From: Eledone cirrhosa
Taxonomy: Eukaryota
Assembly (NCBI GenBank): GCA_964016885.1
Contig: OZ024748.1
Coordinates: forward strand, 22,196,001-22,260,000
Reading direction: 5' to 3'
DNA length: 64,000 bases
The number at the start of each line of letters is the position of its first letter. Positions within the stretch are counted from its first letter, which is position 1. Under the pieces are notes generated by a model. The model did no database searches, had not been told where the DNA came from, and saw nothing but the letters and a program-made list of their open reading frames with translations. The position numbers and the translations under genes were made by a program. Positions 32,851 through 33,870 of the stretch are shown one piece after another.

Positions 32851-33870
<1,020 letters not shown>

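Follow-up and report, generated by a model that had tools for sequence, protein, structure and literature searches.

The DNA analysed here, referred to as the window, is a 64-kb stretch (C8:22196001-22260000) of a 3.0-Gb genome. At 33641-33820 it contains an insertion of a repeat that we call family A, which lies between two (TA)n runs and has two arms: one with the tail, on the minus strand, and an inverted one without it, on the plus strand. Positions in the element are numbered from the predicted cut of its hammerhead ribozyme: +1 is the first G past the GTC and -1 is the C preceding it. The copy belongs to the CATAC subfamily of family A, and its parts, as read from the letters, are as follows.

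33535..33642, no strand: (TA)n target repeat, left flank
33643..33720, minus strand: tail of the long arm, element +20 onward (the full element continues into the ORF region; in L185 and L420 the ORF follows)
33721..33739, minus strand: long arm +1..+19, 3' strand of hammerhead helix I, CATAC; the predicted cut falls between 33740 and 33739
33740..33748, minus strand: ACTTTAGTC, element -46..-38 by comparison with the natural arm in copy L063; its GTC doubles as -3..-1
33749..33751, no strand: 3-nt spacer, centre of the junction hairpin
33752..33816, plus strand: inverted tail-less arm, -46..+19, with the cut site intact (+1 at 33798)
33817..33866, no strand: (TA)n target repeat, right flank

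A sequence-only reading had proposed that the long arm terminates at the ribozyme cut and is a fossil of a self-cleaved RNA template. The motifs lie where that reading placed them – GTC at 33742-33740 on the minus strand, GGGGTC from 33739, and the junction hairpin gactaaagtc-a-gactttagtc at plus-strand 33740-33760 – and the predicted cut is a real hammerhead site, since the entire motif is present in long copies elsewhere. Termination of the arm at this point is not borne out, however. It matches the element without a gap only as far as the G of GTC (-3), the 9 nt preceding the site (33748-33740) are element -46..-38 in the same orientation, and 37 nt (the 3' strand of helix II, the GAAA and helix III) are absent between two GTC triplets. 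The copy contains only the 3' half of the hammerhead, and its partner arm is unbroken from -46 across the cut site.

A fossil of cleavage would be an arm that starts at +1 with no element sequence upstream; this copy keeps its GTC and has -46..-38 ahead of it. Because a cleaved 3' product starts at +1 and yields cDNA without the GTC, the rebuilt GTC points to read-through, and because -46..-38 also ends in GTC, its position before the site points to a deletion at GTC microhomology in a read-through copy. The junction is likely to represent such a 37-nt microhomology deletion in a Penelope-like (PLE) insertion that read through the ribozyme site.

The window contains further family A insertions at 14454-14920, 17151-17509, 19535-19710 and 44861-45054, and several are nested in each other's (TA)n flanks. 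Three long inverted repeats between (TA)n runs adjoin the flagged site (32585-32690, 32965-33105 and 33270-33480) and are probably arm pairs of other PLE families. A tandem array of ~45-nt units at 34600-35500 is interrupted near 34700-34820. A hammerhead-like motif was picked out by eye at 296-420 (CCCG CTGATGA, long helix II, GAAA TTCGA GTC, CGGG), and a minimal one lies at 2455-2520 (TATTTTAT CTGATGA ... GAAA TATATC TA, ATAAAATA). An Rfam scan of the 64-kb window returned no match.

On sequence grounds, family A represents the 3' end of a Penelope element that resembles the Hydra clade, is 3.1 kb long and carries a type I hammerhead with a U3-A8 core. A 22-mer from its tail has 17,181 exact matches in the genome. 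A full-length parent copy, L420:211-3350, has both pseudo-LTRs and measures 3,096 nt from cut to cut; it encodes a reverse transcriptase (RT) and GIY-YIG-like ORF that is broken by stops and frameshifts. Its motifs include YRDD at nt 1443 and VIY...YIG at 2155, together with DKT (SDKTGN), the CxCX5C linker (CNCPDRSTC) and CxxC and CxH (CNLC...CKH); at the RWK position (nt 504) it has RLRWR, a conservative variant. The parent aligns at 34-40% identity to most of the length of a 759-aa homolog. A Pfam search of the ORF pieces gave no match, and a homolog has a weak GIY-YIG match (E 0.012, below cutoff).

Consistent with this motif-based assignment, Hydra-clade PLEs as described in PMC8557442 are ~3 kb long, have a C-terminal GIY-YIG-like domain and the DKT, CxCX5C, CxxC and CxH motifs, insert into (TA)n, carry a hammerhead in the pseudo-LTR and leave inverted 5'-truncated copies with an optional tail. 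Family A likewise targets (TA)n, where an arm that bears the tail is paired with an inverted arm that lacks it. It differs in having RWR rather than RWK and in its tail of ~78 nt versus the 30-40 bp described for PLEs. The description of a non-LTR retrozyme, which consists of head-to-tail tandem units with a hammerhead in each and no ORF (10.64898/2026.07.22.740005), does not fit, since family A copies occur as inverted pairs scattered through the genome and an ORF is present in the parent.

The pseudo-LTR hammerhead runs in the order CCCC, 7-nt core, long helix II, GAAA, helix III, GTC, GGGG, with a GAGCTC palindrome in the helix III loop. Three subfamilies, named from the bases after GGGGT, are distinguished by their cores: TTGAGAA with U3-A8 in CTTAC (three copies seen), TTGACAA with U3-A8 and preceded by five C in CATAC, and CTGAGAA in CCTAC, with a C3.A8 mismatch in 6/6 full copies seen (4 insertions). 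Full CCTAC ribozymes with the mismatch occur at L104:9849-9962 and in L358, L106 and L203, in a subfamily estimated at >5,000 copies. CTTAC and CATAC have the 3-8 pair, GAAA, NUH site and three helices of a type I hammerhead. CCTAC lacks the 3-8 pair; from the letters, its mismatch should cripple the core. Only uncleaved RNA can give rise to long copies, which may over-represent dead cores. Helix III has 6 bp in CTTAC and CCTAC and 5 bp in CATAC, with a G.U wobble in 19 of 43 CTTAC rows (by eye), and -6..+6 is identical in all three subfamilies except at -4, where some of CTTAC shows a C/T variant.

In folding predictions, the constrained hammerhead of L129 and L185 lies 0.0-1.1 kcal/mol from the minimum, and for L129 (CTTAC) the minimum-energy fold is itself the hammerhead. 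The mutated CTTAC copies L250 and L230 are predicted to be 10.9 and 3.3 kcal/mol off the minimum, respectively, and CATAC, with its low +1 signal (see below), only 0.3-1.1 kcal/mol. The minimum-energy fold of CATAC copy L185:1504-1618 pairs core bases with a GUCGAA segment, a predicted pairing that is a possible off-switch.

The U3-A8 core is a known variant of PLE hammerheads, including that of Schistosoma Cercyon (PMC4209133). Family A shares with the hammerheads described there type I topology, U3-A8 covariation, G10.1-C11.1, a palindromic loop III and motifs on opposite strands in truncated copies. It departs from them in its full 5-6 bp helix III and long branched helix II, features that make folding as a monomer possible.

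A second family in the window, family B, bears on the other arm that had been put forward as a fossil.

1567..1660, plus strand: family B tail-bearing arm, starting 9 nt upstream of the predicted cut (1575/1576) at an ATG common to the inverted arm
1109..1220, minus strand: inverted arm of family B, in which the letters show a canonical hammerhead core, complete (CTGATGA ... GAAA TGCGCA TA)

The tail-bearing arm does start at ATGCGCAT, 9 nt before the cut, as had been noted. Those 9 nt are sequence that a cleaved template could not supply, which argues for read-through rather than a cleavage fossil. Across family B, 8 of 35 short junctions lie near the cut, every one explicable by AT microhomology, and 0 of 28 arms are clearly at the cut. 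The two copies cited as fossils both keep nucleotides upstream of the scissile bond (3 nt in family A and 9 nt in family B), and both break at short shared motifs.

We examined where 5' ends fall across the genome in two ways. For an unbiased histogram, loci were picked by the tail only, with a search pattern that gives weight to CATAC; 187 arms were scored from 202 tail matches, after removal of 14 whose tail was cut and 1 that lay at the edge of its locus. The first 30 loci, which had been selected for likeness to the flagged junction, were excluded from every histogram. The main truncation mode was far from the cut: 99 of the 187 arms start at -47..-34. Two start at +1, 5 at +1/-1 and 12 within -3..+3, so there is no +1 peak in this sample, which is too small to reveal one. 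The foot of helix II (-24..-28) likewise has no peak among the 187 arms, with one copy or none per position.

The second approach used exact patterns genome-wide, consisting of three non-matching bases followed by element sequence up to the tail, with controls only at -3 and +3. These gave 762 matches at +1, 64 at -3 and 106 at +3, alongside 21,781 read-through arms. We rejected the raw 762 as a count of +1 ends, since half of the rows are read-through with an extra G or a small change: the first 100 comprise 50 true breaks, 44 with an extra G only (TCG) and 6 with other small changes. Ten of the 44 TCG rows were checked as loci, all of them read-through, and the remaining 56 rows were all fetched. 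Among checked control loci, 28 of 30 are true at -3 and at most 28 of 30 at +3. We thus estimate ~381 true breaks at +1; the corresponding figures for the controls are ~60 (-3) and no more than 99 (+3). At the level of the family, 5' ends at +1 exceed their neighbours, and the genome-wide peak at GUC|G that the sequence-only reading had proposed looking for is present. These ends are a minority class, a few percent of copies.

The true +1 breaks are concentrated in one subfamily, with CTTAC accounting for 32 of 50 versus 16 of 56 controls (P=0.0004). Both arms end at or near the site in 21 of the 50; the other 29 are joins to (TA)n, to other flanks, or to a partner arm ending elsewhere. Among the first 100 of the 21,781 read-through rows, 43 are CTTAC, 32 CATAC and 25 CCTAC, so CATAC is not the most abundant subfamily.

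The main mode recurs in the inverted arms, where 77 of 110 end in -47..-34 despite being ~78 nt shorter, which indicates that the stop is set by position and not by length. It falls in the 3' strand of a helix II sub-hairpin (examples in the window are at 14533-14662 and 17230-17369). An internal start, a stall or a nuclease cut may produce it; RNAs beginning there would miss the 5' half of the ribozyme.

To compare subfamilies, we used a two-arm pattern with a 0-30 nt gap, which samples near-site junctions without favouring +1. For CTTAC it gave 471 matches. Among the first 100 rows, which represent 99 insertions (one was seen on both strands), 33 end exactly at the cut on both arms, all 33 in different flanks. 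Sixteen of these have the perfect palindrome CCCCGGGG and 17 have CCCC-spacer-GGGG, with spacers of A (six), T (three), ATT (two), AA, TA, TTT, CTG, ATTTG and AGTAAG. Long-arm ends in the 99 insertions number 21 at +1, 24 at -1, 5 at +2, 3 at +3, 4 at -2 and 0 at -3, with +2 and -1 counted in this set only; a test of +1 alone against its eight neighbours gave P=1.4e-9.

The other subfamilies show fewer such junctions. CATAC gave 119 matches, with 6 of 100 rows at the cut by eye (9 allowing one change; none exact) and 2 of 30 by script. CCTAC gave 241; here 13 of 100 rows are at the cut by eye, with 2 exact, and a lenient count gives 15. Fisher tests against the 33/99 of CTTAC gave P=3e-6 for CATAC (7/100) and 0.002 for CCTAC (14/99). 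Scaled by the rows that fit the patterns (42 CTTAC, 23 CATAC and 24 CCTAC per 100, by eye), cut-site junctions occur at ~1.7%, ~0.14% and ~0.6% of read-through copies, and helix III-centred junctions at ~1.4%, ~1.3% and ~2.9%, respectively (by eye). Given the -6..+6 sequence that the three subfamilies share, local microhomology does not account for the difference in rate. Neither the presence of a spacer nor the agreement between arms separates mechanisms. Spacers are equally common at modal -47..-34 junctions (28 of 60), so "spacer means run-off" was discarded as a discriminator, and long- and short-arm ends are weakly correlated (rho 0.17, P 0.07, 110 insertions), which does not separate fold-back from twin priming.

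We favour, at a probability of roughly two in three, a reading in which the flagged junction is a 37-nt deletion and a few percent of sister insertions record run-off of RT from self-cleaved RNA. Each arm would be a cDNA of its own, with priming at one side of a (TA)n break; on a hammerhead-cleaved template both cDNAs would end at the complement of +1; and the two run-off products would be joined end to end or through a few extra bases, to yield ACCCC-(0-6 nt)-GGGGT. Cut-site insertions lack the ribozyme and everything upstream, which would make cleavage a dead-end side branch for those copies. Some observations run counter to this reading. The 16 of 33 CTTAC junctions that are CCCCGGGG could also be made by CG microhomology, the two ATT spacers could be decayed GTC, and CCTAC has 13 of 100 at the cut despite its C3.A8 core – a subfamily for which core integrity fails as a simple predictor of the +1 peak. 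In folding, one CTTAC copy does well, two mutated ones do worse, and CATAC, with its low signal, does nearly as well.

Characterized systems offer partial parallels. In R2, genomic 5' junctions mark the cut of an HDV-like ribozyme and non-templated bases are added at run-off (PMC3774820). There the cut yields the normal 5' end of full-length copies, whereas in family A it lies near the unit's 3' end, and cleaved templates would give short dead-end insertions, a few percent of copies and often with both arms. Acting on AT-rich DNA, a PLE protein, that of green anole Poseidon, cuts both strands and extends them, and its two RT start sites bracket the tail (PMC11167929), which fits tail-bearing and tail-less arms. 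Its hammerhead is protein-assisted, cutting in vitro only with protein, and is dispensable; uncleaved RNA is the dominant substrate and no reads ended at the cut in this one element tested in vitro, in contrast to the ends at the cut in this genome.

The main rival to run-off is structural: RT would stall on uncleaved RNA as it leaves the G run and enters the three-way junction or helix III. The cut site is one base from the foot of helix III, the 5-bp helix of CATAC (versus 6 bp in CTTAC and CCTAC) matches its having the lowest signal, CCTAC peaks despite its mismatched core, and the main mode shows that position-specific stops unrelated to the cut exist. Yet the CCTAC helix III is equal to or stronger than that of CTTAC and has less than half its rate (13-14 vs 33 per 100, P ~0.002), the +1 peak is 1-2 nt wide, and the foot of helix II shows no peak; we give stalling about one chance in five. 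That +1 marks a minor start of transcription or the cut of a protein nuclease is very improbable; Penelope elements have an internal promoter in this region (PMC8557442), but either event must match the scissile bond to the nucleotide. Joining without any part for the ribozyme is also improbable, if somewhat less so. Short hairpins could arise after insertion, when a longer inverted repeat loses its centre, or through joining at CG/GG microhomology, and the 16/33 perfect palindromes fit this, as does the commonness of helix III-centred and other microhomology junctions, the flagged copy being of the same general kind. The three subfamilies share the site sequence, however, and CCCCGGGG occurs in 16/99 CTTAC, 2/100 CCTAC and 0/100 CATAC, and 29 of the 50 true +1 breaks take a form other than a two-arm hairpin with the site at its centre.

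There remains the proposal of a cleaved template behind the flagged copy itself, with its GTC supplied coincidentally by the junction hairpin. Cleavage-site ends do occur in family A, the hairpin could be fold-back synthesis halting after GTC, and a G at -47 in both flagged arms (T in L063) hints at copying between arms. Against this, it requires a 3-nt coincidence, CATAC has the weakest +1 signal and the partner arm reads through. Breaks at -3, the flagged type, are at background level (the 64 matches above), and the same jump, TTA or TGA before GTC, is found in 13 of the 64 rows (by eye) and 5 of 30 loci (by script). Taking ~850 arms at +1 (the 381 corrected for the three-mismatch filter) and a 1/64 chance of regaining GTC, a hand estimate would make ~13 of 60 -3 ends cleaved-type, or ~2 of 16 for CATAC alone, and thus gives the flagged junction a ~10-20% chance of a cleaved origin. 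We regard that origin as doubtful; it is compatible with run-off from cleaved RNA at the level of the family. The idea of a self-cleaved template thus survives for the family, probably as a minority class and mostly in a sister subfamily, and is not supported for either copy on which it was based. That the ribozyme was active in vivo is something we would infer from DNA.

Neither the type of element nor its hammerhead is new, and the same goes for the U3-A8 core and the inverted structure. Our literature search, whose coverage left out the 2017 Terminon and dimeric-PLE-hammerhead papers and supplements, found no report of genomic PLE ends at a hammerhead cut, and PMC3088659 and PMC6431247 contributed nothing on this. 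The passages of PMC8557442 that were examined call hammerhead function in PLEs unclear and do not report truncation at the cut, and the literature examined, PMC4209133 included, contained no in vivo evidence for PLE hammerhead cleavage. The flagged copy alone is a poor witness and contributes nothing to the cleavage question. Direct historical evidence would come from an excess of ends at the cut that is sharp to the nucleotide and specific to a subfamily, and both arms ending there informs how inverted structures form. In a more tentative extension, to which we give somewhat less than even odds, the fraction of cut ends in each subfamily would reflect how often the ribozyme fired before reverse transcription, both strands would be primed on cleaved RNA, and the dominant stop at about -41 would mark a second defined RNA end (e.g., an internal start), without the ribozyme's 5' half, by which most templates would escape cleavage. 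Since the end-position test needs an assembly only, it is applicable to any genome rich in these elements – and, if this extension is true, the genome itself would amount to a fossil assay, quantitative in kind, for hammerhead activity.
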